DNA from: Geobacter metallireducens GS-15
GTDB taxonomy: Bacteria > Desulfobacterota > Desulfuromonadia > Geobacterales > Geobacteraceae
Reading direction: 5' to 3'
Length of the DNA: 32,000 nucleotides
NCBI RefSeq assembly: GCF_000012925.1
Contig: NC_007517.1
Span: 2,220,001-2,252,000, forward strand
How positions within the stretch are numbered: the stretch's first letter is position 1; every line of letters begins with the position of its first letter. The notes under the pieces are model-generated. The model was not told where the DNA came from. It did no database searches and saw only the letters and a list, made by a program, of their open reading frames with translations. The position numbers and the translations under genes are program-made. Shown here piece by piece: positions 3,204-32,000 of this stretch.

Positions 3204-4571
3204 TCATGCGTTAATGCCGTGCTTCCTCATGAGATCATAGAGTGTTGGCCTGCTGATTCCCAACTCTTCCGCAGCCTTGGCGATATTCCCCTTGCTATTG
3301 GTAATAGCCCCCCTGATCATCTCCCGCTCAACCTGTTCCCTGGCTTCACGCAGGGTCGTCACCTCACCGATGCCTGCTTTTCGTGCCGAGGGTCGCTCGG
3401 TGAAGCCCAGATCGTCGGGCTCGATTACTGCCCCCGATGCCATGAGCACTGCCCGCTGAACCTTGTTTTCCAATTCGCGCACGTTCCCCGGCCAACCATA
3501 ATTTTCGATGTATTCACGGGATGTTTCACTAAAACCTTTTATCTTCTTCTTGAACTCATTGACGCACCGCTTCAGGAAGAAATTGGCTAACAGCATAACA
3601 TCATCGCCGCGGTTCCTGAGGGGAGGAAGCGTGACGGTTACCACCCCGATCCGGTAATAGAGGTCTTCCCGAAACCTCCCCTCTTCCATGGCGCGAACGA
3701 TATCGACATTGGTGGCCGCTATGATCCGGGAGTCAATGGAGATATCCTCCCTCCCCCCAACCCGTTGAATGGCTTTTTCCTGCAGGAAACGAAGGAGCTT
3801 GACCTGGAGGTTGAGGGGAAGCTCACCGATTTCGTCCAGGAAGAGTGTCCCCTTGTGGGCATATTCCACCTTCCCCTGAACCCGGGCCATTGCTCCAGTG
3901 AACGCGCCCTTCTCATGCCCGAACAGCTCTGATTCAAGAAGATTTTCAGGGATAGCACCGCAGTTGATGGGGATGAACGGGCCGTCCTTGCGCAGACTCT
4001 GAGCGTGGATGGCGCGAGCCACAAGCTCCTTGCCGGTGCCACTCTCGCCGTGGATAAGAACAGAGATGTCAGAGGTGGCAACCTTCCTGATCGTCGAAAA
4101 TACCTGCTGCATCTCGGCACACTGGCCGATTATCCCTTTGACATCCGGGCCGCTCCCCCCAAGGGCGCTCTGCAGGCGACGGTTCTCATCCTCAAGGGTC
4201 TGCAGGTGAAAAGCCCGCTTGATTATAACCTTGAGCTCATTCAGATCGATGGGCTTCTGGTAAAAGTCATAGGCCCCCATCTGCACCGCCTTCACGGCGT
4301 TCTCCTTCCCCTCGTTACCGGTAATGACGATCACCTTTGCGTCGGGGGCAATGCGAAGCATCTCACCGAGGCAGCGAAACCCCTCTTCTGAACTGTCCTC
4401 ATGGGGAGGGAGCCCCAGGTCGAGAGTAACGACCTGGGGGCGGTGCTTGCGGAAGAGTTCCAGCGCCTCTGTGCCATCGGCGGCCAGATGAAGGGAATAC
4501 TCCTTCCCAATCCCCCATCGAAGCTGACGGCGGATATCCTCGTTGTCATCAACTATGAGCAGCTTTTCCAT
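3204..4571 (-). CDS. prsR: PEP-CTERM-box sigma-54-dependent response regulator PrsR (REC, AAA+ sigma-54 activator, Fis-type HTH)
   Basis: The N-terminus LLIVDDNEDIRRQLRWGIGKEY...VVTLDLGLPPHEDSSEEGF...KVIVITGNEGKENAVKAVQMGAYDFYQKPIDLNELKVIIKRAFHL fits the PrsR family pattern. Walker A is GESGTGKE and the GAFTGA motif is present. The C-terminal HTH is GNIAKAAEELGISRPTLYDLMRK. ATG at 4571 is preferred because GAGGTG lies 6 nt upstream; the ORF track starts 9 nt earlier at GTG 4580. Confidence 0.9.
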   Translation of the reverse strand: MEKLLIVDDNEDIRRQLRWGIGKEYSLHLAADGTEALELFRKHRPQVVTLDLGLPPHEDSSEEGFRCLGEMLRIAPDAKVIVITGNEGKENAVKAVQMGAYDFYQKPIDLNELKVIIKRAFHLQTLEDENRRLQSALGGSGPDVKGIIGQCAEMQQVFSTIRKVATSDISVLIHGESGTGKELVARAIHAQSLRKDGPFIPINCGAIPENLLESELFGHEKGAFTGAMARVQGKVEYAHKGTLFLDEIGELPLNLQVKLLRFLQEKAIQRVGGREDISIDSRIIAATNVDIVRAMEEGRFREDLYYRIGVVTVTLPPLRNRGDDVMLLANFFLKRCVNEFKKKIKGFSETSREYIENYGWPGNVRELENKVQRAVLMASGAVIEPDDLGFTERPSARKAGIGEVTTLREAREQVEREMIRGAITNSKGNIAKAAEELGISRPTLYDLMRKHGINA

Positions 4572-4581
4572 CAATTGCACC

Positions 4582-6687: not shown

Positions 6688-7977
<1,290 letters not shown>

Positions 7978-18122: not shown

Positions 18123-19330
18123 GTACCTCCTGCGGCGGCCTGGTAGGTCCGCTCCTGCTCCTCGCACAGCCTGCCCCAATCGTAGGTAAGGGCGCATTCC
18201 CGCGCATTCCGCTCAAGTGCTTCACGCAAATCCCTGTTCGCAAGGACGGACATGACCTCATCTGCAAACGCTTCGGGGGTGTCGGCAACAAGTATATTCC
18301 TGCCATGCTCCACCGCAAGCCCCTCGCATCCCACCGAGGTTGAAACAATAGCCTTTCCCATCCCCATGGCATCAAGGATCTTGAGCCGCGTACCGCTGCC
18401 GATCCGGATCGGCACCACCACCACCCGTGCCTCGTCCACATAGGTGCGGATATCATCCACGAAGCCGGTCACCCTTACCCGCGGGTCGCTGGCTGCGGCC
18501 TCGGCAATCTCCCGGGGCGGTGCGGTTCCCACAAAGATCATGGTGGCGTCGGGCTGCCGCTGCCGGATCAGCGGACAAATCTCGCGCCAGAAATAGAGGA
18601 CTGCATCGCGATTGGTGTGGACATCCATGTGCCCTAGCCAGAGCACGGAATTTTCCACAGGTGGCCGTCCAATGGGCTTGAAGAACTCGGTATTCGTCCC
18701 GTTGGGCACCACGGAGATCGGAATGGTTATCCCCATGCCTACGAGAACATCACGGTCCAGCTCAGAAACGGCGATGCACCGGTCAAAACGGTTCACCATC
18801 TCCTTTTCAAACCGGCAGAGCCTCTGCCACTGGAGTTTCAAGAAAGCCCGCTTCAGCGTACTCGGGTCCGATTCCGCCCAGCGCTGCAGTCTGATCGATT
18901 CCACATTGTGATTGACCAGGATTTTGGGGAGATGGAAGAACTCACTCAGGTAAACCGACAGGGGGAGCAAGTCCACATGGACAAGGTCAATCTTGTTGTT
19001 CGCAATGATCTCCCTGATCTTGGCCCGCATCGCCGGGGAGTCGTATTTGGACGCCACAAAAGGGAGGTCGGAAAACAGGTTGCAGCCGAGCGAAAAGGCC
19101 AGTTTGGCGCGGGACTGATCGACCGGAATCGGGAACGTGTGCACTTCCTTGCAGAAACTCTTGAGGTGCTCGATGTGCTCAGGCTTCAGCTCGTGTTCCG
19201 GCTGCTGGATAAAGGTCACCAAGGTCACGTCATGGCGTCGCGCTGCATCCCGCAGCGTGTGATAGGTGCGCAGACTGTGGCCGTTGATGAGGGGATAGGG
19301 GCTCTTGGTGGAGAGGAACAAAACGTTCAT
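18119..19330 (-). CDS. GT4-family glycosyltransferase (possibly the PEP-CTERM/EpsH1-associated sugar transferase type)
   Basis: 403-aa ORF. The N-terminus is MNVLFLSTKSPYPLINGHSLRTYHTL. The C-half is a GT-B fold with the E-x7-E region VVVPIRIGSGTRLKILDAMGMGKAIVST. There are ATGA overlaps at both ends. Confidence 0.85.
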   Translation of the reverse strand: MNVLFLSTKSPYPLINGHSLRTYHTLRDAARRHDVTLVTFIQQPEHELKPEHIEHLKSFCKEVHTFPIPVDQSRAKLAFSLGCNLFSDLPFVASKYDSPAMRAKIREIIANNKIDLVHVDLLPLSVYLSEFFHLPKILVNHNVESIRLQRWAESDPSTLKRAFLKLQWQRLCRFEKEMVNRFDRCIAVSELDRDVLVGMGITIPISVVPNGTNTEFFKPIGRPPVENSVLWLGHMDVHTNRDAVLYFWREICPLIRQRQPDATMIFVGTAPPREIAEAAASDPRVRVTGFVDDIRTYVDEARVVVVPIRIGSGTRLKILDAMGMGKAIVSTSVGCEGLAVEHGRNILVADTPEAFADEVMSVLANRDLREALERNARECALTYDWGRLCEEQERTYQAAAGGT

Positions 19331-20483: not shown

Positions 20484-21107
20484 TCAGAAAAAAGAGGTGA
20501 GAGCCGGAGCCAGGGAATTCATGTAGCGCGTCGCCACATCCCGCGTTGCATCCACACTCCCCCGCACCGGAACATGCAGTTGTACCTGGGCGCCGCTCGG
20601 ACGCTTGAACTGCATCTGCTGTTGAAGCATCTCCCATCTGAAAGTCGAATACTTACCGGTCATCCGGTCGCCGGAGAGATAGAAATAGTAGATAACCCGT
20701 ACCGGCTCGGCATAGCCCAGCACCAGCCTGTTGAGGTCGATCTGCTCTTGCTTGCCACCCGCGAGCGTCACCGTAATCGGGACAATGCGCTCATCGAGCA
20801 CCTTCATGCCGACGCCGGTATTGCACGACTCGGGGTTGTGGAACCCGATCTTGTTGTCGGGATAGTACACGAGAGAGAGATACACATGCTCACCCTGGGG
20901 GCTCGAATAATCACGACTCAGGATGTACTCGGTCTCCAGGATGTCCTTCACCCGGTCCTCAACGGTGTAGGGGGTTCCCCGCCACTCCCCCACGGTGAAG
21001 GGGAAATCTTCGAGCTTGACCGTAACCGGCTTGTTGGCCAGGTGGTTGTCGAGGAAAACAAATCCCGACGTGGCCAGGAGCAGTAACAATAGTGTGATAG
21101 CTCTCAT
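20484..21107 (-). CDS. epsI: EpsI-family exosortase-associated protein
   Basis: 207-aa ORF with one N-terminal TM/signal anchor. LEDFPFTVGEWRGTPYTVED...ILSRDY...VYLSLVYYPDNKIGFHNPESCNTGVGM matches the EpsI pattern (fP..ig.W.g...Y......l.i.yY......HsPe.C). The start overlaps the exosortase stop (ATGA at 21104-21107). Confidence 0.85.
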   Translation of the reverse strand: MRAITLLLLLLATSGFVFLDNHLANKPVTVKLEDFPFTVGEWRGTPYTVEDRVKDILETEYILSRDYSSPQGEHVYLSLVYYPDNKIGFHNPESCNTGVGMKVLDERIVPITVTLAGGKQEQIDLNRLVLGYAEPVRVIYYFYLSGDRMTGKYSTFRWEMLQQQMQFKRPSGAQVQLHVPVRGSVDATRDVATRYMNSLAPALTSFF

Positions 21108-21961
21108 TCAGGACGCTCCAGCACTCGCATGATGCCGAACAGCACAGCCATGCTGATAAAGAAAACCGCCAGCCCCGATGTGGTGTGAAACCAGTGTTCC
21201 GGCGACGCCCATTCTCCCCCCAACGTGTCGGCCACGAAGATCAGGGTGCAGACCCTCAGCACGTTGGTTGCAATGGCCACCGGCACCGACAGGGAAAAAA
21301 GGAAAAGTTTTTTGCCGATGCCGGCCTGCAAAAGGTAGGCGAACAGGGCCCCCATGGCCATGAGCGCGATGAGGGAGCGAATGCCGCTGCAGGGGTCCCC
21401 CACCGAGAGAGTGGCGTTGGTCAGGTGGATCACCGCCCCTTCGCGGACAATGGGCATCCCGGAGCGCTCCATGATTGCCGTACCAATATTGGCAACCATC
21501 ATTTTGAGGGGAAATGAAACAGCAGAGATTACCCGCATCGGCAGCGGAAACATGAAGGCGAGGAACCCCAAAGGAAATGCAAGTTGCCTGGTGATCGCGG
21601 GGCCGTAGAAATAGAGGCAGAGGCCGACGGCCAGGGCCATGATCGAGAAGCCGGACGTAAAGAAGGTGTGGGTCCACACGCTCGCCACGTGGGTCAGCAG
21701 TGCAGCGATGATCAAACCCAATCCTAATCGTGAACTCGACCGGGGTAGTCCTGCCAGATCCTTGCGCTTCATCCAGACCAGATAACCGCAGATGAAGGGA
21801 ATCAGGTATCCGTGGGAATAATGGGAATCGGGATTGTCATAACGCTCCACGAGCCACAGGAAGGTATCGTGGTAGGCATAGATGAAAAGCCCCAGGCACA
21901 CAAGCCCCAGAATCATTCCTTTTCTGTCGGGCAATAAACTATTTTTTGCGGCGATTTCCAT
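21104..21961 (-). CDS. xrtA: exosortase (XrtA/EpsH-type transpeptidase)
   Basis: Polytopic membrane protein with the exosortase active-site motif VGDPCSGIRSLIALMAMG (Cys at 21389-21391) and a later conserved His region (EHWFHTTSG). It sits next to epsI, and prsK and prsR lie ~14.4 kb away (4582-6672 and 3204-4571). ATG 21961 is preferred because GAGAGG lies 7 nt upstream. The ORF track starts at TTG 21982. The subtype call XrtA is inferred from the PrsK/PrsR context. Confidence 0.88.
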   Translation of the reverse strand: MEIAAKNSLLPDRKGMILGLVCLGLFIYAYHDTFLWLVERYDNPDSHYSHGYLIPFICGYLVWMKRKDLAGLPRSSSRLGLGLIIAALLTHVASVWTHTFFTSGFSIMALAVGLCLYFYGPAITRQLAFPLGFLAFMFPLPMRVISAVSFPLKMMVANIGTAIMERSGMPIVREGAVIHLTNATLSVGDPCSGIRSLIALMAMGALFAYLLQAGIGKKLFLFSLSVPVAIATNVLRVCTLIFVADTLGGEWASPEHWFHTTSGLAVFFISMAVLFGIMRVLERPE

Positions 21962-21985
21962 TGAATTACCTCTCATACCCAATAG

Positions 21986-22100
21986 CTTTCACCACGAAAA
22001 CACGAAATTGGGAAAGCACGAAAGAAAACCCCTTAAATCTTCAAACTTCATTTGTTTTTAGACCTTTTTTCGTGCTTTCAACCTTTCGTGCTTTCGTGAG
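21986..22100 (-). repeat. intercistronic inverted-repeat element, copy A (long imperfect hairpin built from 8-nt xxxGAAAG units)
   Basis: The left arm CACGAAAACACGAAATTGGGAAAGCACGAAA pairs with the right arm TTTCGTGCTTTCAACCTTTCGTGCTTTCGTG. It lies between the GT4 stop (22114) and the xrtA start. It shares its arms with the copies at 24162-24274 and 26998-27096. Confidence 0.85.
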
Positions 22101-22113
22101 AAGGTTGTTTGGT

Positions 22114-23301
22114 TCAATTCTTCCCCGACCACAATCTGCAATACAGTTCCTCGTGCGCTTCAACCATGGCCCGCACCGAGAATCGTTCCTCCGCCACCCG
22201 TCGGGCTGCTGTCCCCATGGCCTGGGCGCGGGTCGGATCATCCAGAAGCGCCCCGACAGCCGCCGCAAGGAGGGCCGAATCGGCAGGGGGCACCACCAAG
22301 CCGGTCACGCCGTCCTGAACCAGTTCAGGGTTCCCCCCCACACACGTCGCCACGACCGGCTTGCCGGCAGCCATGGACTCCATGATGACATTGGAAAGCC
22401 CTTCGCTCGTGGAACAGAGCACCGAAACATCTAAGTGCGCCAGGATCGCCGGGACATCGCCCCGTTTTCCCAGAAAATGGATCCGCTCCGAGAGACCGAG
22501 ATCCCGTGCCTGCCGTTCACAGTCGGCCCGAAGCGCGCCGTCTCCCACCAGGATGAAGTGAACGGCGCTTTGTTTCCTCGCCACTCGATCCGCCGCCTCG
22601 ATGAAGTAACGATGTCCCTTGATCTCGAAATTCATATTTGCCACCATCCCCACCAAGGGACCAACAGCCGGCAGACCGAGATCAGACCGGGACGGCAGCG
22701 GAGACGTGGCACCTTCCAAAGTTCCTTCCTCCAGGGCATTGTAGATGACCTCGATCTTCCCGGCGGGAAATCCCTCCCTGGTGACGGTTTCATCTTTCGC
22801 TGCTTGGCAGACGGCCACAAGACCATCGCAGGATCGGGAGGATACCCGAAAAATCCGGTCATACACCGGCTTGCGCTTGAACCCCAAGTCCCGCCTCGAT
22901 GTCATCCAGACCGGCACTCCGGCAAGCCGTCGCGCCAGCCACCCCATCACCTCAGCCTTCTCGAAGAAGGTCTGGATAATATCGACCCGCTCTTCCCGCG
23001 CCAGGCGGGCAATACGGAGCATCTGCCCAAATCCTGAGGGGGAGTAGAACTTGCCCGTCGGAAAATGGAACACCCGCGCTGGACCAAGTTTCCCGTCCTT
23101 AAGAGGAACCGCGCCCCGTGGCGCAAGCTGAACAACCAGGGGTCTGAAACGGGACGGGTCGAGGGACGACGCCAGGATGCCGAGCTGCTTCTCCGCTCCT
23201 CCCTGCATCGGTGAACCGCACGGGGACAGGAAGGTGTCGATGATGTACATGACCGTAATCGGACGATCACAAGCTTTCTGCTGACCGGATGCATCACCCA
23301 T
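22114..23301 (-). CDS. GT4-family glycosyltransferase
   Basis: GT-B C-terminal motif is VSVLCSTSEGLSNVIMESMAAGKPVVATCVGGNPELV, and the N-terminus contains MYIIDTFLSP...GGAEKQL. ATG 23301 is preferred because it lies downstream of the deacetylase stop at 23312. ATG 23250 is also possible, and the ORF-track start 23379 would overlap the upstream gene. Confidence 0.8.
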   Translation of the reverse strand: MGDASGQQKACDRPITVMYIIDTFLSPCGSPMQGGAEKQLGILASSLDPSRFRPLVVQLAPRGAVPLKDGKLGPARVFHFPTGKFYSPSGFGQMLRIARLAREERVDIIQTFFEKAEVMGWLARRLAGVPVWMTSRRDLGFKRKPVYDRIFRVSSRSCDGLVAVCQAAKDETVTREGFPAGKIEVIYNALEEGTLEGATSPLPSRSDLGLPAVGPLVGMVANMNFEIKGHRYFIEAADRVARKQSAVHFILVGDGALRADCERQARDLGLSERIHFLGKRGDVPAILAHLDVSVLCSTSEGLSNVIMESMAAGKPVVATCVGGNPELVQDGVTGLVVPPADSALLAAAVGALLDDPTRAQAMGTAARRVAEERFSVRAMVEAHEELYCRLWSGKN

Positions 23302-23311
23302 GGGGATTCTG

Positions 23312-24154
23312 CTACGCCTCCGCAACCTTGCCGCCAACCCTTGCCACAAGCTCCCCCATCGCCCCGAACCTGAAATCACCCAGAAGGCGGTCCAGACGCC
23401 TGCCTGTCTTGCACAGGTTCACATAGTGCCTGAACCGGTAATCGTGCCGAATCGGAATTCGCGGCTGTTCCGGGTCCAACTCCCAGGGGTGGAGATAGAA
23501 CACAAGCGCCCTCCCCTCGCCGTTGATCCGTTTTGCCAGATAGCGGAAGAACGGATAGGGGAAGAGGCGGAAATAGCCCCCGCCGGCAGCGGGAATGTTC
23601 TTGCCGCCGAACCTTACCGTAGACAGGGGCACCTCCACCAACCCGTTGTCGAAGCGGAACGGAGAGAGCGATGAGCCGCTGAAGCCGTACCGGTCATGGA
23701 ACGAGGTGGGGAACACGCTGGAGTCGTAGGTGAACCCCTCGTCAACCAGCACGTCGAGAGCCCAGGGCGTTTCCGGATTAACGGAAAACGACGGCGCCCG
23801 GTACCCCCGCACTGCCATTCCTGTGAGCCCCTCAAGAATCTCCTTCGAGCGCCGAAGATCCCGGCGGAACTCCTCAGGGGTCTGGGTGTAGACCAGTTCA
23901 TGCCCATAGCCGTGGCTGGCGATCTCGTGCCCTGCATCGGCAATCTCCCGCACGAGATCGGGGCACCGCTCCGCAACCCATCCGAGAATGAAGAATGTTG
24001 CCCGGGTCTGGTGGCGCCGCAACAAGTCCAAAATTTTGCGGGTATTGTTCACCACCCGCAGGTCGCACGTATCCCAGCTGTCGGCGGCAATGGCCCCCTT
24101 AAGGTTCTCCACCTGGAACCAGTCCTCTATGTCGAAACTAAGGGCGTTTAGCAT
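23312..24154 (-). CDS. polysaccharide deacetylase (NodB/CE4 fold), PEP-CTERM/XrtA-locus subfamily type
   Basis: 280-aa ORF. NALSFDIEDWFQVENL...ATFFILGWVAERCPDLVREIADAGHEIASHGYGHELVY is the characteristic N-half of the exosortase-locus deacetylase family. The size also fits. Confidence 0.88.
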   Translation of the reverse strand: MLNALSFDIEDWFQVENLKGAIAADSWDTCDLRVVNNTRKILDLLRRHQTRATFFILGWVAERCPDLVREIADAGHEIASHGYGHELVYTQTPEEFRRDLRRSKEILEGLTGMAVRGYRAPSFSVNPETPWALDVLVDEGFTYDSSVFPTSFHDRYGFSGSSLSPFRFDNGLVEVPLSTVRFGGKNIPAAGGGYFRLFPYPFFRYLAKRINGEGRALVFYLHPWELDPEQPRIPIRHDYRFRHYVNLCKTGRRLDRLLGDFRFGAMGELVARVGGKVAEA

Positions 24155-24161
24155 TCAAATT

Positions 24162-24274
24162 CTTTCACCACGAAAACACGAAATTGAGAAAACACGAAAA
24201 TAAACCCCAAGACCTTTAGCCTCTTTGTGTTTTATGCCTCTTTTCGTACTTTCAACCTTTCGTGCTTTCGTGAG
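24162..24274 (-). repeat. intercistronic inverted-repeat element, copy B
   Basis: It has the same arms as copy A (CACGAAAACACGAAATTGAGAAAACACGAAAA ... TTTTCGTACTTTCAACCTTTCGTGCTTTCGTG) but a different central loop. It ends 7 nt from the deacetylase ATG at 24154. Confidence 0.85.
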
Positions 24275-24289
24275 ATGTTTGTTCTTGAT

Positions 24290-25477
24290 TCACATAAACT
24301 CCGCAATCTTCCCGAGAAGCTCCGCCGCAAGCTCGATCTCTTCAGGCGTATTGTAGATATAGAAGGACATCCGCGCCGTCGGCCCGATGCCGAGCCGGTC
24401 ATGGAGCGGTTGAGCGCAGTGGAAGCCCGAGCGGATCATGATGTTCTCCCGCAGGTTCAGCACCTTGGCCACGCCGTGGCACCCCATCCCCTTGACATTG
24501 AAGGTGATGACGGAGAGCCGGTCCGTGGGATCGAGGCTGCCGTATAGTTCTACATTGTCGATGGCCTTCATCCTCTCCAGGGCCAACGCCATCAAGGCCT
24601 TGTCGTGGGCCAGCACGTTGTCCATGCCGATGTCGTTCAGGTAGTCGATGGCGCTGGCCAGCGCAATAGCACCCTCGATGTTGGGCGTTCCCGCCTCATA
24701 GCAGGTGGGGGGTTCCTCAGGAACATAACTTCCCAGGTGGGCCTCCTTGATGGTGCTCCCCCCCATGAGATACGGTTCCATCCGCTCATAGAGCTCTTCC
24801 CGCACATAGAGGACGCCGATACCCGAGGGCGCCAGCATCTTGTGCCCGCTGAAAACCAGGAAATCGCATCCCATCGCCTTGACGTCGATCTCCATGTGCG
24901 GCGCCGACTGGGCCGCATCAACCAGTGTCAGCGCCCCGTTTTTCCGCGCCTCGGCTATCACCTCTTCCACCGGATTGACCAGACCAAGTACGTTGGAGAC
25001 GTGGGTCACCGCGACCAGGAGCGTCGGTTTCAGCAATTTTTCCTTCAGATCCGCCACATCTATCCGCCCCTGGGCGTCGATATCCACATAGTCTACCTTC
25101 CGTGAACGTCCCCACGGAAGGAGATTCGAGTGGTGCTCGGTAACGGTGGACAGAATCTGCCCCTCCCCCTTCAGGCAGGTGCTTACCAGATTGATCGCTT
25201 CGGTCGTGTTCCTGACAAAGACGATTTCCCGCTCGTCGGCATTGATGAAACGGGCAACGGTCCGGCGCGCTTCCTCATAGAGCTCCGACGACTCCTGGGA
25301 AAGGGTGTGCACCCCGCGGTGGATATTGGCGCAGTGGTTCGCGTAGTAGTTCGAAAGCGTATCGATCACCTGGCGAGGCTTCTGGGTCGTGGCGGCGCTG
25401 TCGAAATAGACTATCGGCTTCCCGTTGATGCGCCTCTCAAAGATGGGGAAATCTCCCCTGATTTTCTGAATGTCCAT
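24290..25477 (-). CDS. class V PLP enzyme, SufS/CsdA-like cysteine desulfurase
   Basis: 395-aa ORF. FPIFERRINGKPIVYFDSAATTQKPRQVI...ANIHRGVHTLS is the SufS N-terminal signature. The PLP lysine is in FSGHKMLAPSGIGVLY (Lys213, 24839-24841). The active-site cysteine is in IRSGFHCAQPL (Cys354, 24416-24418). AAGGAG lies upstream of the ATG. Confidence 0.85.
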   Translation of the reverse strand: MDIQKIRGDFPIFERRINGKPIVYFDSAATTQKPRQVIDTLSNYYANHCANIHRGVHTLSQESSELYEEARRTVARFINADEREIVFVRNTTEAINLVSTCLKGEGQILSTVTEHHSNLLPWGRSRKVDYVDIDAQGRIDVADLKEKLLKPTLLVAVTHVSNVLGLVNPVEEVIAEARKNGALTLVDAAQSAPHMEIDVKAMGCDFLVFSGHKMLAPSGIGVLYVREELYERMEPYLMGGSTIKEAHLGSYVPEEPPTCYEAGTPNIEGAIALASAIDYLNDIGMDNVLAHDKALMALALERMKAIDNVELYGSLDPTDRLSVITFNVKGMGCHGVAKVLNLRENIMIRSGFHCAQPLHDRLGIGPTARMSFYIYNTPEEIELAAELLGKIAEFM

Positions 25478-25504
25478 CGAAAAATCTCCTTCACTACTTC
25501 AGCA

Positions 25505-26968
25505 TTACAGCCTGTCGTGCCCCTTTGCCTTGATAAACCGGAACTTCCCGCCATCCTCGGCCTTGATGGTCTTTACCGCGTATGCCTTTACATTCGCCTC
25601 AGTATCGAAGAATTCCCGGAAATCCCTGGCAATCCCCTCCCGGTCGACCTCTTTACCTTCAACCGGAACACACAGCAGCTCATACCGGCCGGCCGATTTC
25701 TCCGTTAGCTGGAAGTTGTCGATCTCTTCACGCCGATGGAAAAAATCGAACACCTCGTCGCTGGTGAAAAACCTCCCCTGGGAGTTGACCAAGGTGTCCT
25801 GCACCCTTCCCTCCACTTCCAGCCGGATCCCTCTCCGGCCGCATCCGTGGTCATCCTCGAAGTAGCGGCCAACATCCCCGATCTCGTATCTGATCCACGG
25901 CATGGCCCTGTTTTCCAGATCAGTCACGTAGAACTTGCCCAGTTCCCCCGGTGCTGCGGCCCGATCACCATGACGGACCTCCACATGGTAGAGATCCATG
26001 AAGAGATGGACCCCTTCGTGCTTCGGACAATCAGCGGCCATGAAACCCAACTCGCTGCAGCCGTAAGTGTCATACACCTCGCACCCGAACGCCGTGGCGA
26101 TAATCTGTTTCATGTACGGGGTCAACGAACCGCCGAAGGGCTTGATGACACCGACGCGGGGAGCGGAAATCCCCTTGTCGAGAATGTACTTGGCAAACGT
26201 GTACAAATAGAGAGGAAGCCCCTCCAGCAGGTGTGGCTGATAGCTCCGGATAGAATCCAGATAGGAAACAATGTCGCTTTCCGGGATATTGGTCCCCTCC
26301 GGACCGAAGGAAGGGAGCGTCACCCGCTTGTACAGGTCATGACGCATGCTGTAGAGCCCCTCGTACACATGCCTCCCCGCACCGCCGAAATCACCTTCCT
26401 TAACCAGTGAAACCAGCTTCTTCGTGGAGAGTTTCTCACCCTTGGGCCCGTCATTGATCCCGCAGATGGTGGTGCACATGTGAGGAGGAATCTCCATCCA
26501 CTTCATCCCCATCCTGTGGTTGCCGGCAAGACGGTGGGCCCTGATCCCCGCGGCCCAGTTGAGGGTCGACTTGCGAAAATCGTGGATACCCATGATCTTG
26601 CGCGTCGTGCCTGAACTGGCCACATACTTCCAGCGGTTGCGGTCCATCCCCCCGGCCGTAATCCCCTCGGGGAAGTTGGCCATGATGTCGTCCTTGGTGG
26701 TCGGCGGAATCCGCTCGATGTCCTCAATGGACTTGATATCTTCGGGATGCAGCCCGATCGAATCGAACCGCTGCCGGTAAAACGGGACATTCTCGTAGGC
26801 ATGGCGGACAATCGTCTGAAGCTTCGTCAACTGCATCTGGCGCAGCTGTTCAAGGCTCAGCCGTTCCGATTTCAGCATCACCTTGTACTCGTCCCATATT
26901 TTGAGGTCCGTAAACCGCGATGCGGCCGGCATGACGAGCTTGTTCATGATCAGAGGGTATACCTGCAT
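25505..26968 (-). CDS. PaaK/CapK/F390-synthetase-family adenylate-forming enzyme
   Basis: 487-aa ORF. LTKLQTIVRHAYENVPFYRQRFDSIGLHPEDIKSIEDIERIPPTTKDD is the family N-terminal signature. The P-loop-like motif is ASSGTTRKIMG, followed by later YDTYGCSELG and YEIGD motifs. AAGGAG lies upstream of the ATG. Confidence 0.8.
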   Translation of the reverse strand: MQVYPLIMNKLVMPAASRFTDLKIWDEYKVMLKSERLSLEQLRQMQLTKLQTIVRHAYENVPFYRQRFDSIGLHPEDIKSIEDIERIPPTTKDDIMANFPEGITAGGMDRNRWKYVASSGTTRKIMGIHDFRKSTLNWAAGIRAHRLAGNHRMGMKWMEIPPHMCTTICGINDGPKGEKLSTKKLVSLVKEGDFGGAGRHVYEGLYSMRHDLYKRVTLPSFGPEGTNIPESDIVSYLDSIRSYQPHLLEGLPLYLYTFAKYILDKGISAPRVGVIKPFGGSLTPYMKQIIATAFGCEVYDTYGCSELGFMAADCPKHEGVHLFMDLYHVEVRHGDRAAAPGELGKFYVTDLENRAMPWIRYEIGDVGRYFEDDHGCGRRGIRLEVEGRVQDTLVNSQGRFFTSDEVFDFFHRREEIDNFQLTEKSAGRYELLCVPVEGKEVDREGIARDFREFFDTEANVKAYAVKTIKAEDGGKFRFIKAKGHDRL

Positions 26969-26997
26969 GGCTCTACTCCTTTTCTACTTCATAAAGG

Positions 26998-27096
26998 CTT
27001 TGATCACGAAAGCACGAAATTGAAACCCGAAAAACAAAGTAAGGTTCGGAGAGTTTGTGCCTTTTTTCGTGCTTTCGACCTTTCGTGCTTTCGTGA
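26998..27096 (-). repeat. intercistronic inverted-repeat element, copy C (shorter, inner arm partly eroded)
   Basis: The outer stem CACGAAAGCACGAAA / TTTCGTGCTTTCGTG is perfect over 15 of 15 positions. The right arm CTTTTTTCGTGCTTTCGACCTTTCGTGCTTTCGTGA is near-identical to copies A and B. It lies between the GT2 stop (27131) and the PaaK-like start (26968). Confidence 0.8.
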
Positions 27097-27130
27097 TTAG
27101 TTCTTATTTGCCTTTATTCGTGTGTTCAAG

Positions 27131-28270
27131 TCACTTGCGCACCGTCTCCCACGTAACCATCTTCTGCCCAGCAAGGGTTTTGAAAAAAGCAATAAGCGAC
27201 GCCGTATTCACGATGCAGAAATAGAGCGGCACCGCGGCGGGCTTGAACTTCTTACCCACCCGGTCAGCCCCGAGACCAAACAACGCCAGCAGATAGAACG
27301 CCACCTGAAGCACAAAGGTAATCACGTAGAACTGCCTATCGAGCAGAAATGCATTAGCGACCAGCAGCCCGATCAGGAAGAACGGAATCAGCCACCGGAG
27401 CACTTTGTGGGAAAAGAGCTGAAAGGCAACAAACGGAAAACGAAAAGGGTTCAGAAGCCCCCGGGCGAAGAGGATGCCCCGCATGGCCCGGGTGATGACC
27501 CGGATGCGCATCCGGAACTCCTCGTGGGACTTCTCGGTGGTCTCTTCGTAGGCCACTGCCTCCTGCTCGAAGACAACACGGTACCCGCCCCGGATCACCA
27601 TGAGGGGCTCCACCAGATCGCTGATGATGTCGCCGGGAAGCGGCACATAGGCCGCCTTGCGCACCGAGTAGATGCAACCGCAGCACCCCGAGATGGTCCT
27701 GATCCGGGTCTGCATGCTTTTGATGAAGTTCTCGTACTTCCAGAAAAGGATCGAGCCGGTCCCCACCGGTGCCCCCGTGGGGTTCACGTACTCGTAGCGG
27801 CCGCTCACGGCCCCCACTTCAGGGTCGTTGTAGTTGCGGACCAGCTTGCGGATGGCGTCCTTCTCGTAGACGGTCGTGGCGTCGGAGAAGATGATGACAT
27901 CGCCGGTGGCCGCCTTAACCGCCTCATTCTGGGTGGCGGTCTTCCCAACCCTCCCCTCGACCCGCTTCAGAACCACCCCCTGATCGCGGAACTCGCGCAC
28001 GATGTCGTCAGTGCGGTCGGTGGAGCCATCGGAAGCCACCATCACCTCAAGCTGTTCCCAGGGATAGTCGAGCGCAAGTACTTCCGTCAGCTTCTTGCGG
28101 ATATTCTTCTCCTCGTTGTAGGCGGTGATCAGGAAGGTTACACGAGGCGTTATGTCGCGCCGGTCCAGAGGCCGTTTCACAAACAGGCCGATGAGGGGGA
28201 TCAGCAGCGCGTAGCCGAAGTAGGTATAGAAAATCGTGACAACCAGCAACCAGAAAATCCATTCACTCAT
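27131..28270 (-). CDS. membrane-embedded GT2-family glycosyltransferase (synthase-like topology)
   Basis: 379-aa ORF with an N-terminal TM, then VTFLITAYNEEKNI...VASDGSTDRT...IIFSDATTV (GT-A with a DxD-type motif). C-terminal TM helices carry the HKVLRW motif. There is an ATGA overlap with the upstream gene. Confidence 0.85.
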   Translation of the reverse strand: MSEWIFWLLVVTIFYTYFGYALLIPLIGLFVKRPLDRRDITPRVTFLITAYNEEKNIRKKLTEVLALDYPWEQLEVMVASDGSTDRTDDIVREFRDQGVVLKRVEGRVGKTATQNEAVKAATGDVIIFSDATTVYEKDAIRKLVRNYNDPEVGAVSGRYEYVNPTGAPVGTGSILFWKYENFIKSMQTRIRTISGCCGCIYSVRKAAYVPLPGDIISDLVEPLMVIRGGYRVVFEQEAVAYEETTEKSHEEFRMRIRVITRAMRGILFARGLLNPFRFPFVAFQLFSHKVLRWLIPFFLIGLLVANAFLLDRQFYVITFVLQVAFYLLALFGLGADRVGKKFKPAAVPLYFCIVNTASLIAFFKTLAGQKMVTWETVRK

Positions 28271-29688
28271 GACGCAATCCTACTGTTCGGGAAATGGTCC
28301 ATTTCAGGGGCAGCGGGAACAGCCACGACGTCAGTCACAGAAGCCGCAATCCGAGCGTTGTGCTGGTCAACCAGTGCCCAGAGCACCCAGTAGATGCCGC
28401 CAAGTTGAAGATACGTCCATCGGTCGCCGAAAAAATTCGAGACAATCGATGCAATCACGGCACAGACGAAACCAAACCCGAATGCCTTTATGATCTCTTC
28501 ATCACCATTTTTGTAAAGCTTCCAGCCACTGCGAAGAGCAAGAACATACAGCCAGATATACAGAGAGAGGCCAATGACTCCCTCCTCTGCCATGAATTTA
28601 ATGTACACGTTATGGGTATCCCAACCGGTAAGATACTGGTATGTATTGTATCCTTTGCCGGTTATGGGGTTCTCGTAGAAATACCCCAAAGCCTTTTCCC
28701 AGATTTCGGTCCTCTTTGCCGTTTCGAGCTGCATGCCGCCGACCTCAACGACATCAGTACGAGCGCCGTCCTCAACGATGGTATTCTCAATCCTGTCCAC
28801 AACCGATGAAGGAAGGATCGCTTTCCAGGTTATGAGGAATGCGACAATGACAATGAGCAACCTGCGTTCCTTGACGAATGCGATAAAAATGGCGGTAAGG
28901 AGAATAGCTACGTAAGCCCCCCGTGAGTAAGAATAAAGAGCGCAATAAGTGCTCCCTATCATGAAGAACACATAGGCGATGCGGCGTTTGACATTCTTGT
29001 CGATGATAAAAAGGCCAAGGACAAAAAGCATATGAATAGCGTGGAAAGCTCCCATCTCATTGGGCCCAAGATTGGCAAGTCCGCTCACCCGGCTTTTGGA
29101 CCCTTGGTAACGGGTATGCTTCACCCACTTAAAGGATTGCTGGAAGCGGATGTCCGCCACTAGAAATGCCCCAAAAAGAAACGTGAACAACTTATTCTGC
29201 CACGCCCTCTCGCGCAAAGCGTAATAGGTAATCAGGTAGAGGAGCGGCATAATCATGTAGTTTTTCCAGTGAGCAAGCCTGAGAAGGTTTATCTCACCCG
29301 TCAAGCCGTCAAAACTCGCCGATCCTATCAACAGGCTGATAAAGGAATACCCTGCGAATATCGCAAGAGGTTTCAGGAGCGGACTTGGGCCAAGTGCCGG
29401 CACTTCGTCGTCACGCTTCTGAATACAAATACCCAAGAGCATTGCGATAATAGTGAAATCAATAACGTTGTTAGCCAGCGGCAGTTCCGACTTCAGAACC
29501 TTGTCGAGAATGACGTAGAGCGGTATTAGCGGCACCAGGAAGAGCAATCCTATTGCACTCCGATTAACGGCAGAAGCAATAATCACTGGGCCTGCCAGTC
29601 CATAGACCACATACGGAACTATTTCACTGAGACCTAAACCAAGCATGAAATACCTTTGTCTCTCTGAAACAAATACAGAAATCGGCAA
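28267..29688 (-). CDS. Wzy/O-antigen-ligase-like polytopic membrane protein (EPS polymerase or exosortase-system O-glycosylation ligase type)
   Basis: It has about 10 or more hydrophobic helices. The Wzy_C-like segment is YSYSRGAYVAILLTAIFIAF. The ORF-track start is TTG 29688, and ATG 29646 (MLGLGL...) is an alternative. Confidence 0.7.
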   Translation of the reverse strand: MPISVFVSERQRYFMLGLGLSEIVPYVVYGLAGPVIIASAVNRSAIGLLFLVPLIPLYVILDKVLKSELPLANNVIDFTIIAMLLGICIQKRDDEVPALGPSPLLKPLAIFAGYSFISLLIGSASFDGLTGEINLLRLAHWKNYMIMPLLYLITYYALRERAWQNKLFTFLFGAFLVADIRFQQSFKWVKHTRYQGSKSRVSGLANLGPNEMGAFHAIHMLFVLGLFIIDKNVKRRIAYVFFMIGSTYCALYSYSRGAYVAILLTAIFIAFVKERRLLIVIVAFLITWKAILPSSVVDRIENTIVEDGARTDVVEVGGMQLETAKRTEIWEKALGYFYENPITGKGYNTYQYLTGWDTHNVYIKFMAEEGVIGLSLYIWLYVLALRSGWKLYKNGDEEIIKAFGFGFVCAVIASIVSNFFGDRWTYLQLGGIYWVLWALVDQHNARIAASVTDVVAVPAAPEMDHFPNSRIAS

Positions 29689-29707
29689 TACTCAACAAGA
29701 TTTCGTT

Positions 29708-30625
29708 TCATTTCAAAAAATCATTCTTTAAAGCCTTCATATTGAGATAAGAAAGGCCAGGCACGCATGTAGAAAGATAATAAACAATACTCTTAACTGG
29801 TCTATACGGGACGGCCTTTCTGAAATAATTACGTGCGTCGCTGTACTTCTCTGAATTAAGATAGTAATAGGCCAATTCGTAGTAATCCCTGCGTAAGCCT
29901 TTGAAAAGTATTTTCTTTTGGTTATCCGAAAGAGCCCAACGGTTTAAGGCAGTTTCCTTGACTTTGATCCTTCCCAGTTGCGTTTTCTCATAATTCTTAC
30001 TGGTGTTGAACTGATGGCTTCTCCAGTGAGTCAAGACCCGGGGGTCATAATGAATGTCGTAACATCTGCTCAGGCGCAGATAAAAATCGTAATCATCAAC
30101 TATGGGAAGCGATTCGTCGAACAAACCGAGCTGGTCGAAACATGATCTCCGAACCATGATCTGTGAGGCTGTTGTTATATAATTTCTGTAAAGAAACTTT
30201 TCAAACATGCAGCCCCCCTCCCCTTGGCGATGAGGGTTGATCAAGCTGCCAGTCTGCTCATCGAGAATTTGAAAATTACAATAAGTCAGTCCACAGGATA
30301 GATTCCGATCCAAGGCCTCAACCTGGAGTGCAACTTTATCGGGCAACCAGATGTCGTCATGGTCCAGAAAAGCAATGTACTCTCCCGTTGAATTGGTGAT
30401 GCCGGTATTCCTAGCCGCCGCGGTTCCACCGTTTTTCCTCCGTATACAACGAATATTATCTGCTGTGATGTATGGCTTAATCAGTGTTGACACATCAACC
30501 GTTGAGCCGTCATCAACAATTAAAACCTCAATATTAGTAAAATTTTGCGTTCTTACAGATAACAGAGTATCAATTAGATGTTCTCTAGGGTTATAAGTTG
30601 GTATTATAATTGTAACTTTTACCAT
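29708..30625 (-). CDS. GT2-family glycosyltransferase (soluble, about 300 aa)
   Basis: VTIIIPTYNPREHLIDTLLSVRTQNFTNIEVLIVDDGSTVD...IAFLDHDDIW is a classic GT-A N-terminus with a DxD motif. The gene is markedly AT-rich. Confidence 0.85.
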   Translation of the reverse strand: MVKVTIIIPTYNPREHLIDTLLSVRTQNFTNIEVLIVDDGSTVDVSTLIKPYITADNIRCIRRKNGGTAAARNTGITNSTGEYIAFLDHDDIWLPDKVALQVEALDRNLSCGLTYCNFQILDEQTGSLINPHRQGEGGCMFEKFLYRNYITTASQIMVRRSCFDQLGLFDESLPIVDDYDFYLRLSRCYDIHYDPRVLTHWRSHQFNTSKNYEKTQLGRIKVKETALNRWALSDNQKKILFKGLRRDYYELAYYYLNSEKYSDARNYFRKAVPYRPVKSIVYYLSTCVPGLSYLNMKALKNDFLK

Positions 30626-30685
30626 AAAATCAAATGCCCAAGTTCGATTAGCCCGAGTTAGCTGTACACAAACAGAATAAACTAA

Positions 30686-31348
30686 CTAATCTTTTTGCAT
30701 CCCAACACACGCAAATTGCCTATATTTCATATCATCGAAAGTATTGCCCAACAGCTGATTTATCATCCTGAATTTCCACGGAAACTGGGTTTCGCCTATT
30801 CCTTTCATACTAATGATTTTATATCCACACATATCGAATAAATCTTTGATACTTTCGTTCGTAAAAAATCTTAGGTGAGTCTTGTCTAAAATGCCTTCGT
30901 CATTGTATTTCCACTGTTTGTATTTAATGAGTTGTTTTATGTTATCGTAATATCTCACGTTCGGAATAGAAGCGACAACGCGGCAATCTGGTTGCATGAA
31001 TGCCTTAATTCCAACCAAAATAGCCCACGGGTCAACCAAATGCTCGAGGACATCATTAAACACTATACAATCAAAATATAATTCCGGTAACGACAGAGGC
31101 CCAGCTTCAATGCTTCCCACAATTACTTTGTCCAATTTTGTTTGAGCTTCCTTAGCAGCTTCATGACTGAGTTCAACCCCCCAGACCTCAACCGGCCTTT
31201 GTGACTTTAGGGCGTGGCCAAACTCACCTGCTCCGCAACCAACATCAAGTATCTTATTGACGTTATCTGGCATGAACCTCAGCATTTCTAACCTACTGCT
31301 GTTATAGTAATTAGCTGGTTTATGATTAGAACCGAGTAAATTTTCCAT
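30686..31348 (-). CDS. class I SAM-dependent methyltransferase
   Basis: 220-aa ORF. Motif I is ILDVGCGAGEFG, followed by an acidic post-I residue and IVFNDVLEHL. AGGAG lies upstream of the ATG. The gene is AT-rich. Confidence 0.8.
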   Translation of the reverse strand: MENLLGSNHKPANYYNSSRLEMLRFMPDNVNKILDVGCGAGEFGHALKSQRPVEVWGVELSHEAAKEAQTKLDKVIVGSIEAGPLSLPELYFDCIVFNDVLEHLVDPWAILVGIKAFMQPDCRVVASIPNVRYYDNIKQLIKYKQWKYNDEGILDKTHLRFFTNESIKDLFDMCGYKIISMKGIGETQFPWKFRMINQLLGNTFDDMKYRQFACVGMQKD

Positions 31349-31372
31349 TAAAACTCCTAATATCGGTCAGCG

Positions 31373-32000
31373 TCACCTAACACCGAGTAGCATTTCACGC
31401 GCTTCACGAACCAACTTCCATTTATTAAGAAGACCATGGAGTACAAAATAAATAAATGCAATTACTATAACTTTTGCAACTACTCCCATCACCGACTCAG
31501 CAGAAAAATAATCTCTAAGAAATAAGGATAGCGCAATAATTACTGACGCCGAAAGGAATGCATCTTTCGTTGCTGATACAAATTCGCTAAATTGTATGTC
31601 TGTGGTTTTTTTAACTATCGGATAATAGATCCCATACTGCACAAGATAAGTAGCGGTTATTAGCAACGAAACACCCTCTATTCCATAAAATTTCAACATC
31701 GGATAGATAAGGACGACTTCAATGATTGCCGAAAGAGCCGTTGTTTTGAGAAGAACCTTGTTCATATCAAGGGCCATTAGTACGTTGCCCAACGGTTCGA
31801 GTAGAAAGCGAACAATGCCATAAGCGCACAATATTCTTAAACTCTGAAGCGCAGGTAACCATTTATCTGTTCCATGGCCCAGCACATGGACCAAAAAATC
31901 TCTCGAAATGAGAAGTAGGGTAACGTTAGCCAAAATACCTACAAAACTTACATACTCCAAAACTCTAAAATATGATCTTTTAATCCGCCCCCGATCCTGC
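31373..32000 (-). CDS. C-terminal part of a Wzx/MOP-type polysaccharide flippase, 5' end beyond the window
   Basis: The reading frame stays open from 31960 up to base 32000 (QDRGRIKRSYFRVLEYVSF...), so the gene is window-truncated. Five to six hydrophobic helices resemble the polysaccharide-biosynthesis C-terminal domain. The gene is AT-rich. Confidence 0.65.
   Translation of the reverse strand, partial: QDRGRIKRSYFRVLEYVSFVGILANVTLLLISRDFLVHVLGHGTDKWLPALQSLRILCAYGIVRFLLEPLGNVLMALDMNKVLLKTTALSAIIEVVLIYPMLKFYGIEGVSLLITATYLVQYGIYYPIVKKTTDIQFSEFVSATKDAFLSASVIIALSLFLRDYFSAESVMGVVAKVIVIAFIYFVLHGLLNKWKLVREAREMLLGVR

Follow-up and report, generated by a model that had tools for sequence, protein, structure and literature searches.

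Known enzymes of ATP-dependent thiolation are E1-like or PP-loop proteins (ThiF and MoeB, which work with ThiS and MoaD; ThiI; MnmA; TtuA; LarE; and DndC). LarE, QbsL/QbsE, and PtmA3/PtmU4 adenylate a small-molecule carboxylate and convert it to a thiocarboxylate; LarE is a PP-loop protein that either gives up one of its cysteines or relies on a 4Fe-4S cluster, the carrier QbsE is ThiS-like, and PtmU4 is coenzyme A (CoA)-transferase-like. Type II cysteine desulfurases need a dedicated persulfide acceptor, of which few types are known (SufE, SufU, and CsdE). Here, we describe a pair of genes from a 32,000-nucleotide stretch of the Geobacter metallireducens GS-15 genome (hereafter, the window) that encode a SufS-family (type II) cysteine desulfurase, Gmet_2006, and, immediately upstream of it, an adenylating enzyme of the CapK/PaaK fold (ANL superfamily), Gmet_2007. 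The pair belongs to a long operon on the minus strand, which is of the XrtA/PEP-CTERM exopolysaccharide (EPS) type. We found that the two genes constitute a conserved module, co-oriented and inherited together across phyla, and that the adenylating enzymes of this module carry a di-cysteine (Cx3C) loop. We give something close to an even chance to the reading that SufS hands its persulfide to the Cx3C pair of the ligase, which would then thiolate its own acyl-adenylate, in the manner of ThiI or LarE but on an ANL scaffold.

The pair shares part of its design with several of the systems described to date. With SufS-SufE of Escherichia coli and SufS-SufU of Bacillus subtilis, it has in common the enzyme family and catalytic residues of the desulfurase, the short cysteine loop, and a single obligatory cysteine-bearing partner gene; however, the partner here is a 487-amino-acid (aa) ANL-fold adenylating enzyme rather than a small protein, and no SufBCD genes recur nearby. 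The proposed logic would be like that of ThiI and MnmA acting with IscS, in which an oxygen is adenylated with ATP and attacked by a persulfide supplied by the desulfurase, after which a second cysteine forms a disulfide and so resolves the intermediate. Unlike ThiI and MnmA, the enzyme has an ANL/PaaK fold and not a PP-loop fold, its target would be a carboxylate and not a nucleobase carbonyl, and its desulfurase is a type II SufS and not a type I IscS. The outcome would be analogous to the carboxylate-to-thiocarboxylate conversion of LarE, QbsL/QbsE, and PtmA3/PtmU4, although we know of none of these that is paired with a SufS or that uses a PaaK-fold enzyme with a Cx3C loop. DNA phosphorothioation by DndA and DndC likewise combines a co-encoded desulfurase with an ATP-dependent adenylating enzyme and places sulfur in a polymer, but DndC is a PP-loop 4Fe-4S protein, DndA is IscS-like, the target is the DNA backbone, and Gmet_2006 scores 131 against a cut-off of 480 in the DndA model TIGR03235.

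An initial annotation of this DNA had likened the pair to the ThiS/MoaD and tRNA thiolation systems. The logic of that analogy stands but the enzyme fold does not carry over, being E1-like or PP-loop there and ANL here. Given its ANL/PaaK fold, the system is thus not a member of the known adenylation-coupled thiolation families, whatever its chemistry. Within the PaaK/CapK/F390-synthetase/LuxE branch of the ANL superfamily, Gmet_2007 has the common fold, the common motifs, and the common Cys314/His321/Cys-or-His374/Cys376 site; what distinguishes the paired subfamily from other CapK-like proteins is the Cx3C loop and a longer insert. We know of no biochemically characterized CapK-like enzyme of a glycan locus.

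A conserved two-gene module

Eighty genomic and 80 metagenomic loci encoding CapK-like relatives were searched with the SufS protein. Wherever the CapK-like protein was at least 35% identical to Gmet_2007 and there was room downstream, a SufS gene was present (24 of 24 loci). It was adjacent and co-oriented in 22 of them and lay within 6 kb in the other two, L013 and L090, which are a single Nitrospirales locus retrieved twice. A SufS gene also accompanies 13 more distant CapK-like genes, four at 30 to 35% identity and nine below 30%, and SufS relatives at 55% identity (P0234 and P0236) have a CapK-like gene directly upstream. Paired genes were found in Thermodesulfobacteriota, Planctomycetota, Nitrospirales, Armatimonadota, Gemmatimonadales, and Pseudomonadales, at least six phyla in all. 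The median gap between the two genes (37 pairs) is 27 nucleotides (nt), which is also the length of the spacer in G. metallireducens, where a GGAG Shine-Dalgarno sequence precedes the SufS start. Pairwise identity matrices of the two proteins correlate closely (mirror-tree r = 0.96; Mantel test, 0/2000). The short spacer, the adjacency kept across phyla, and the matched divergence of the two proteins support the view that the pair is a real functional unit.

When all neighbors of 17 paired loci were clustered, the pair itself recurred in 16 of the 17, and no third conserved partner (SufE, SufU, rhodanese, thioredoxin, or carrier protein) emerged. A suf-operon context (SufE or SufU plus SufBCD) was likewise not seen; within 10 kb or less on each side of these loci, where not all small open reading frames (ORFs) were scanned, only the CapK-like gene recurs beside SufS. 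Pfam scans of part of the neighbors, with the small ORFs mostly outside them, found no Suf components. In the literature that we searched, we found no report of the conserved module or of its Cx3C signature, and nothing relevant on characterized CapK-like glycan enzymes; the module and its signature are new, whereas the annotation of both genes and of the hairpin repeats considered below was already known.

An apparent CapK-like/SufS fusion (P0080) was set aside because many of the genes on its contig (L091) are fragmented. In an Armatimonadota locus (L014, positions 8313 to 11407), two tandem Cx3C CapK-like genes (491 and 540 aa) stand before a single SufS gene.

The Cx3C loop of the adenylating enzyme

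The loop that marks the SufS-paired CapK-like proteins has the consensus (E/D)IPPxxCxxxCG and is followed by an insertion about 35 aa longer than that in other CapK-like proteins. In an alignment of 107 CapK-like proteins, the motif and the longer insert were present in 16 of 17 paired or near genes, as opposed to 1 of 85 unpaired genes. Taking all loci together, SufS was adjacent to 31 motif-bearing genes, within 6 kb of 2, and absent from none (33/33 near); for genes without the motif, it was adjacent in 2 of 123 and absent in 121 (Fisher p = 8e-32, uncorrected for phylogeny). As to the two motif-less paired exceptions, one (L027) carries a Cx4C variant, and the other (L142), the SufS of which groups with that of the first, probably does so too. 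Position 169 is most often Trp in unpaired CapK-like proteins. In a neighbor-joining (NJ) tree, the paired ligases group together as a single pure clade of 16 members, so that the motif and the pairing are joint traits of one old subfamily. The subfamily is widespread, with the motif present in 54 or more of the 150 top-matching clusters (50% identity). One 752-aa protein (P0292), taken from the representative library and without genomic context, consists of a complete GT4 glycosyltransferase fused to a Cx3C CapK-like domain (IPPDICTDVCG at residue 566). GT2 glycosyltransferases are also fused to CapK-like domains (P0093, P0117, and P0120), in these cases without the motif.

Threading by way of an unpaired homologue places KWMEI-PPHMCTTICG of Gmet_2007 on KVHVS-YGYGLFTGGLG of PaaK1. 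The PaaK1 loop that is matched in this way (SYGYGLFTGGLG) supplies the aryl-pocket residues Tyr136, Phe141, and Ala147 (2y27). The Cx3C loop would then sit where PaaK has its acyl-pocket loop. In thiolation systems, the adenylating enzyme has a persulfide cysteine with a resolving cysteine (or an Fe-S cluster) and receives its sulfur from a cysteine desulfurase. The counterpart here may be the Cx3C loop, which tracks SufS adjacency and is placed at the acyl pocket by threading. The idea of carboxylate adenylation followed by persulfide transfer, put forward in the initial annotation, appears to gain independent support from this di-cysteine loop and its association with SufS.

Gene contexts among relatives

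Marker genes of polysaccharide loci were found in about 14 of roughly 30 informative paired loci (L008, L012, L013, L016, L089, L094, L095, L097, L098, L100, L109, L111, L126, and L137), three others lying among cysteine, methionine, and thiamine genes and the remainder having no nearby marker or being too short to judge, and xrtA itself occurs in five paired loci (L008, L089, L091, L097, and L109). The linkage of the pair to EPS genes is therefore found in relatives as well, as the annotation had required of it. A deacetylase gene follows the pair in L089, L094, L097, L100, and L109 as it does in G. metallireducens, GT2 homologues precede it in L089, L094, L095, L098, and L100, and genes for FemAB-like, formyltransferase, and AsnB-like tailoring enzymes recur around it. 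Generic CapK-like genes had previously been tied to PEP-CTERM systems through phylogenetic profiling (Haft et al., 2006; PMC1569441).

The module is not restricted to XrtA or EPS loci, as there are no EPS genes around the pair in L009, L027, L093, L092, L088, L010, and L015. In L009, the pair stands among genes for MetY, a CysK-like PALP enzyme, MetX, MetW, NadA, and Thi4, with ThiF and a NifS-like gene divergently oriented. In L027, genes for Rrf2 and a CysE-like hexapeptide protein come before the pair, and in L093, a methionine/cysteine cluster with Rrf2 adjoins it. The neighbors in L088, L092, L010, and L015 are unrelated.

Gmet_2006 and Gmet_2007

Both proteins are identical to database entries of strain GS-15 (ABB32235.1 and ABB32236.1) and are also encoded on contig AGJM01000012.1 of strain RCH3. 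The initial annotation had described a pyridoxal phosphate (PLP) enzyme with Lys213 and Cys354 in place and an adenylating enzyme with a P-loop; the identities, the catalytic residues, and the coordinates were all confirmed. Gmet_2006 matches Aminotran_5 (E = 4.6e-130) and passes the NCBIfam model TIGR01979 (SufS family) marginally (478.7 bits; cut-off 475.1). Its alignment with B. subtilis SufS (5j8q; E = 1.4e-106) covers both proteins from end to end, including the residues Lys213, His115/His116, Arg369 (carboxylate binding), and Cys354. Among 33 paired SufS proteins, H115, H116, N162, D187, Q190, S210, H212, K213, R349, C354, and R369 are at least 97% conserved. Judged by its sequence, Gmet_2006 is thus a cysteine desulfurase of the SufS type with nothing missing. 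It falls short of the equivalog models of the E. coli type (PRK09295, 356.9 against 661; CsdA, 287.7 against 607). A separation of paired SufS proteins from housekeeping SufS was looked for and did not emerge, as B. subtilis SufS, the single housekeeping reference in a simple NJ tree, nests among the paired ones. The G. metallireducens genome has a NifU gene elsewhere (Gmet_0991). In the genome paper, Gmet_2006 is named "sufS; selenocysteine lyase" (Aklujkar et al., 2009; PMC2700814).

Gmet_2007 has no family match in our local copy of Pfam; the precomputed Pfam family of its relatives is PF27533 (CapK_C). The NCBIfam PaaK, DVU_1553, and F390-synthetase models match it far below their cut-offs. 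The score with the PaaK equivalog TIGR02155 is 125.1 bits against 646.3, in two separate stretches, and Gmet_2007 is therefore not a phenylacetate-CoA ligase. Its AlphaFold model (pLDDT 85.8, pTM 0.87) has the two-domain PaaK-type fold, with PaaK1 (2y27) as the best PDB match (Foldseek E = 8e-31; TM 0.68/0.77) and PaaK2 and BT_0428 as other top matches (E about 1e-30); a profile search of the PDB returned PaaK 4r1l (E = 2.2e-46). Residues 140 to 234, the region of the acyl pocket, do not align with PaaK. The P-loop reads VASSGTTRKI, and in an alignment of 30 sequences (A1) the residues G120, T121, Y302, G303, E306, G364, D365, G387, R388, and K475 are invariant. They make up the P-loop, the A5 (YGxxE) and A7 (GD) motifs, the A8 hinge (GR), and the A10 catalytic lysine, and these positions are largely conserved over the 107 tabulated CapK-like sequences as well. 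By these motifs, the adenylation machinery of Gmet_2007 is intact throughout. ABB32236.1 is named "adenylyltransferase, putative," and the genome paper lists Gmet_2007 as a "coenzyme F390 synthetase family protein" that has no orthologue in Geobacter sulfurreducens (PMC2700814).

A second set of residues, Cys314, His321, Cys/His374, and Cys376, forms a C...H...CxC pattern (HxC in the closest clade) that is found in nearly all of about 100 CapK-like homologues, paired or not, and in the PaaK-like BT_0428 (ECQEQNGMH...CPCGR). These residues probably form a family-wide structural metal site, of which we know of no description. We had asked whether the four cysteines that are invariant in A1 make up an Fe-S site peculiar to the pair, and this was rejected in part: only Cys165 and Cys169 are specific to the pair, the others being family-wide.

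Proposed sulfur transfer and alternative explanations

In the scheme that we envisage, Gmet_2006 would convert L-cysteine to alanine and a persulfide on Cys354, and the acceptor of that persulfide would be the ligase itself, through Cys165 or Cys169, in the role otherwise filled by SufE or SufU. The ligase would adenylate a carboxylate. The persulfide on the Cx3C loop would attack the acyl-adenylate to give an acyl-disulfide, and the second cysteine would resolve this, so that a thiocarboxylate is released (or the sulfur is passed on) and a Cys165-Cys169 disulfide is left behind to be re-reduced. In the Geobacter operon, the likeliest substrate would be a carboxylate used in building the glycan, such as an aminouronic acid or an acyl or amino acid substituent; this is the weakest step of the scheme. 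It is the location of the module in an EPS operon, together with a TviB-like enzyme that would supply UDP-GlcNAcA, that makes a glycan-related acid the likeliest candidate there.

A wider proposal, which we hold to be doubtful, is that the Cx3C CapK-like proteins represent a new class of ANL-fold sulfurtransferases that would take persulfide directly from SufS, with no SufE, SufU, or rhodanese relay, and turn an adenylated carboxylate into a thiocarboxylate or other thio-derivative. In XrtA/PEP-CTERM loci, the result might be the first polysaccharide with enzymatically inserted non-sulfate sulfur or, alternatively, a thioacid-activated tailoring intermediate. If this were true, an ANL-fold acceptor of SufS sulfur would be a third scaffold for ATP-dependent thiolation, beside the PP-loop and E1-like folds, and a widespread unnamed subfamily would gain a function. 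As some of the examples come from exosortase-type EPS loci of environmental bacteria, the module may be a sign that glycans of biofilm matrices, those of metal-reducing Geobacter among them, undergo an unrecognized sulfur-dependent modification.

Several considerations weigh against sulfur transfer of this kind. That sulfur passes to the ligase, which acid is activated, and what product is formed are inferences. The position assigned to the Cx3C loop depends on threading and on the assignment of the PaaK1 pocket residues, and the AlphaFold model is poorly defined at residues 167 to 178 (pLDDT below 50), so that the placement of the loop is interpretive. Because the motif and the pairing are both traits of one clade, the 2-by-2 table of motif and SufS adjacency does not count independent events. 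Gmet_2006 is not visibly specialized by sequence, given that B. subtilis SufS nests among its paired relatives, and the occurrence of the module beside cysteine, methionine, and thiamine genes or unrelated genes means that the substrate need not be a glycan. Moreover, a free thiocarboxylate on a sugar acid is, to our knowledge, without precedent in polysaccharides, and it would be reactive.

The activated acid might instead end up in an amide, with no sulfur in the product. In such a tailoring pair, the CapK-like enzyme would adenylate an acid (L-cysteine, another amino acid, or the GlcNAcA carboxylate) and join it to an amine exposed by the deacetylase; the Cx3C loop would bind a metal, recognize a thiol substrate, or hold the acyl group as a thioester, like LuxE; and SufS, working as a C-S lyase or a desulfurase, would have cysteine or an S-acyl-cysteine intermediate for its substrate. 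This would resemble bacillithiol and mycothiol synthesis, in which a GT4 enzyme, a deacetylase, and a cysteine ligase act in that order, and the neighboring GT4 proteins do weakly resemble BshA and MshA. Among the structural matches of Gmet_2007 are the CoA-free ester- or amide-forming PaaK-family enzymes NatL2, AjiA1, and ClxA, and the polysaccharide deacetylase is a recurrent next gene in XrtA loci. The FemAB-like, formyltransferase, and AsnB-like genes around the pair and the published tie between CapK-like genes and PEP-CTERM loci (PMC1569441) would also fit. Yet amide formation offers no necessary role for SufS, the sole invariant partner, and the retention of Arg369, which holds the substrate carboxylate, and of the nucleophile Cys354 in the paired SufS proteins is more in keeping with free L-cysteine and persulfide chemistry than with a lyase role. 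The pair is also found where neither a deacetylase nor a glycosyltransferase gene is close by. We think this pathway unlikely. It also seems rather improbable to us that the module serves general sulfur mobilization, with the CapK-like protein as a SufE/SufU-like acceptor, activator, or gate feeding Fe-S clusters, cofactors, or cysteine and methionine, and with a position in the EPS operon that is irrelevant to EPS chemistry. The sulfur-metabolism contexts of L009, L027, and L093 speak for such a role, as do the nesting of the housekeeping SufS of B. subtilis among the paired proteins and the finding that no SufE, SufU, or SufBCD gene recurs beside the pair (17 loci, small ORFs mostly unscanned). 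However, polysaccharide loci account for about 14 of the roughly 30 informative ones, and several of them share one gene order; invariant adenylation motifs would be needless in a mere acceptor. In addition, Gmet_2007 has no orthologue in G. sulfurreducens, the genome has NifU elsewhere, and a further desulfurase, NifS-like, is encoded 8 kb away in L009.

Because enzymes of the SufS family can double as selenocysteine lyases, the pair could in principle handle selenium in place of sulfur for a seleno-modified product. The name that the genome paper gives to Gmet_2006 points in this direction, and this Geobacter locus also contains the gene for an exported rhodanese, the in-frame TGA of which is conserved. 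That rhodanese, however, has a signal peptide and is limited to Geobacter loci, nothing in the SufS sequence separates selenium from sulfur specificity, and neither selD nor any other selenium gene was seen beside the pair in any locus; we regard a selenium pathway as very improbable.

The rhodanese gene lies about 3.1 to 3.4 kb past the end of the window (L002, 74 to 556; L008, 6494 to 6970). Its in-frame TGA comes just after the active-site region (..IIVYCS*AGEQAS.. and ..IIVYCD*AGESTS..), and the frame runs on in both Geobacter species, the sequences of which have clearly diverged. The gene product is probably a rhodanese that contains selenocysteine (C-x-U) and is exported. There is a short hairpin 17 nt past the TGA, but it was not significant relative to shuffled sequences. 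We had considered this protein as a cytoplasmic relay for the pair and rejected it on account of its signal peptide, its restriction to Geobacter, and the in-frame TGA.

The exopolysaccharide locus

The features of the window that bear on the pair are collected in Table 1. Exosortase, EpsI, the TIGR03006 deacetylase, PrsK, and PrsR are co-located in the window, which places the locus in the XrtA/PEP-CTERM EPS type, and two XrtA-system GT4 genes also belong to the operon. A context of this kind also surrounds the pair in L008, L089, L091, L097, and L109. Beyond the GT2 gene upstream of the pair lie genes for Wzy, a second GT2, a methyltransferase, and a flippase fragment. Two descriptions in the initial annotation need qualification. 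The neighbor that it called a polymer synthase is a glycosyltransferase but a generic GT2 one, with 68 bits in the PgaC/IcaA model against a cut-off of 422. Its uronic-acid-forming dehydrogenase does exist as a TviB-like UDP-GlcNAc C-6 dehydrogenase, which scores below the model's cut-off and is located 16 kb from the pair.

Table 1. Features of the window (positions 1 to 32,000), in order of coordinate
Feature	Position	Strand	Evidence or remark
PrsR	3204-4580	(-)	714 bits (cut-off 503)
PrsK	4582-6672	(-)	667 bits (cut-off 300)
TviB-like UDP-GlcNAc C-6 dehydrogenase	6688-7977	(-)	534.6 bits (cut-off 592)
EpsI	20484-21107	(-)	Adjoins exosortase; the two together define the locus type
Exosortase, EpsH family (xrtA)	21104-21982	(-)	XrtA model 179.8 bits, below cut-off 208
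Repeat copy A (Gmet_R0105)	21981-22109	(-)	GT4-xrtA spacer; -45.6 kcal/mol, z = -5.1
GT4	22114-23379	(-)	Longest ORF, GTG start at 23379
XrtA-system polysaccharide deacetylase, TIGR03006 (Polysacc_deac_1 + DUF3473)	23312-24154	(-)	411.1 bits (cut-off 276.2)
Repeat copy B (Gmet_R0106)	24157-24283	(-)	Within 135-nt spacer between SufS stop and deacetylase start; -40.8 kcal/mol, z = -5.4
SufS-family (type II) cysteine desulfurase, 395 aa (Gmet_2006, ABB32235.1)	24290-25477	(-)	ORF, Aminotran_5, TIGR01979
GFHCAQP loop with persulfide cysteine Cys354 (24416-24418)	24407-24427	(-)	Aligns with GHHCAQP (Cys361) of B. subtilis SufS
PLP-binding Lys213 codon, in SGHKM	24839-24841	(-)	SSHKM at the aligned position in B. 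subtilis SufS
CapK/PaaK-fold (ANL superfamily) adenylating enzyme, 487 aa (Gmet_2007, ABB32236.1)	25505-26968	(-)	ORF, AlphaFold model, motifs
IPPHMCTTICG loop of Gmet_2007 (Cys165, Cys169)	26459-26491	(-)	Translation; signature of the SufS-paired subfamily
Repeat copy C (Gmet_R0107)	26993-27106	(-)	Within 162-nt spacer between GT2 stop and CapK-like start; -40.5 kcal/mol, z = -4.8
GT2 glycosyltransferase with membrane-spanning C-terminal part	27131-28270	(-)	Upstream neighbor of the pair

The GT4 ORF that starts at 23379 overlaps the deacetylase gene by 68 nt, and database calls start later (395 to 403 aa); the true start probably lies downstream of 23379. Over positions 28500 to 32000 (Wzy, GT2, methyltransferase, and flippase), the G+C content drops from 56-60% to 38-48%, and some assemblies of sequencing runs differ in this block, with a 166-aa ORF in place of the 305-aa GT2. 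This part of the locus probably varies between strains and has probably been exchanged horizontally. Downstream of the glycosyltransferases, positions 15273 to 18197 encode a 974-aa protein, one region of which resembles the heparinase HepB (136 bits; cut-off 600), and positions 13105 to 15276 encode a 723-aa protein with a CARDB domain (precomputed Pfam annotation). These two may be matrix-processing proteins or PEP-CTERM cargo.

Hairpin repeats in the intergenic spacers

Three copies of a repeat of about 125 nt lie in three successive intergenic spacers of the operon. They are 80 to 91% identical in register, and each forms a long imperfect hairpin of CACGAAAG-type units that none of 200 shuffled sequences matched in folding. 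Copies B and C do bracket the pair, as the spacer positions confirm. Copy A, however, lies one segment further on, in the GT4-xrtA spacer, and the repeats are thus not specific to the pair. The suggestion that the pair is an inserted cassette did not hold up: its G+C content (56 to 58%) equals that of its neighbors, and the order GT2, pair, DUF3473 deacetylase, GT4, xrtA is kept with no hairpins in L089, L097, and L100.

The three copies had been noted before. The supplement of Aklujkar et al. (2009) gives Gmet_R0105 to R0107 as "3 predicted short RNAs" at the same positions, and the genome paper lists the hairpin family as three copies, all within this operon (PMC2700814). An Rfam scan of the whole window found no family at gathering score, and the hairpins correspond to no curated RNA family. 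A promoter and terminator consensus scan of 21.5 to 27.6 kb found no promoter-like site; terminator-like sites were not enriched, and none fell at the hairpins. Related repeat units are present in the 850-nt SufS-deacetylase spacer of two metagenome loci (L094 and L095) in which the CapK-like protein is 65% identical, which argues that the element is older than the species and tied to this operon position. It is possible that the repeat acts at the RNA level in the SufS-deacetylase spacer, for example in transcript stabilization or processing, and that the pair is a discrete expression segment.

In Geobacter hydrogenophilus, copies are found only at positions B and A, with no copy C. A different repeat, with GGGGTGAGGGG-type inverted ends, is present there upstream of the CapK-like gene and in the 130-nt spacer between the CapK-like and SufS genes (L008, 9432 to 10000 and 11465 to 11593). 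In the first of these two spacers there is also a short ORF that looks DUF559-like by eye. It seems that small mobile elements accumulate in the intergenic spacers of this operon.

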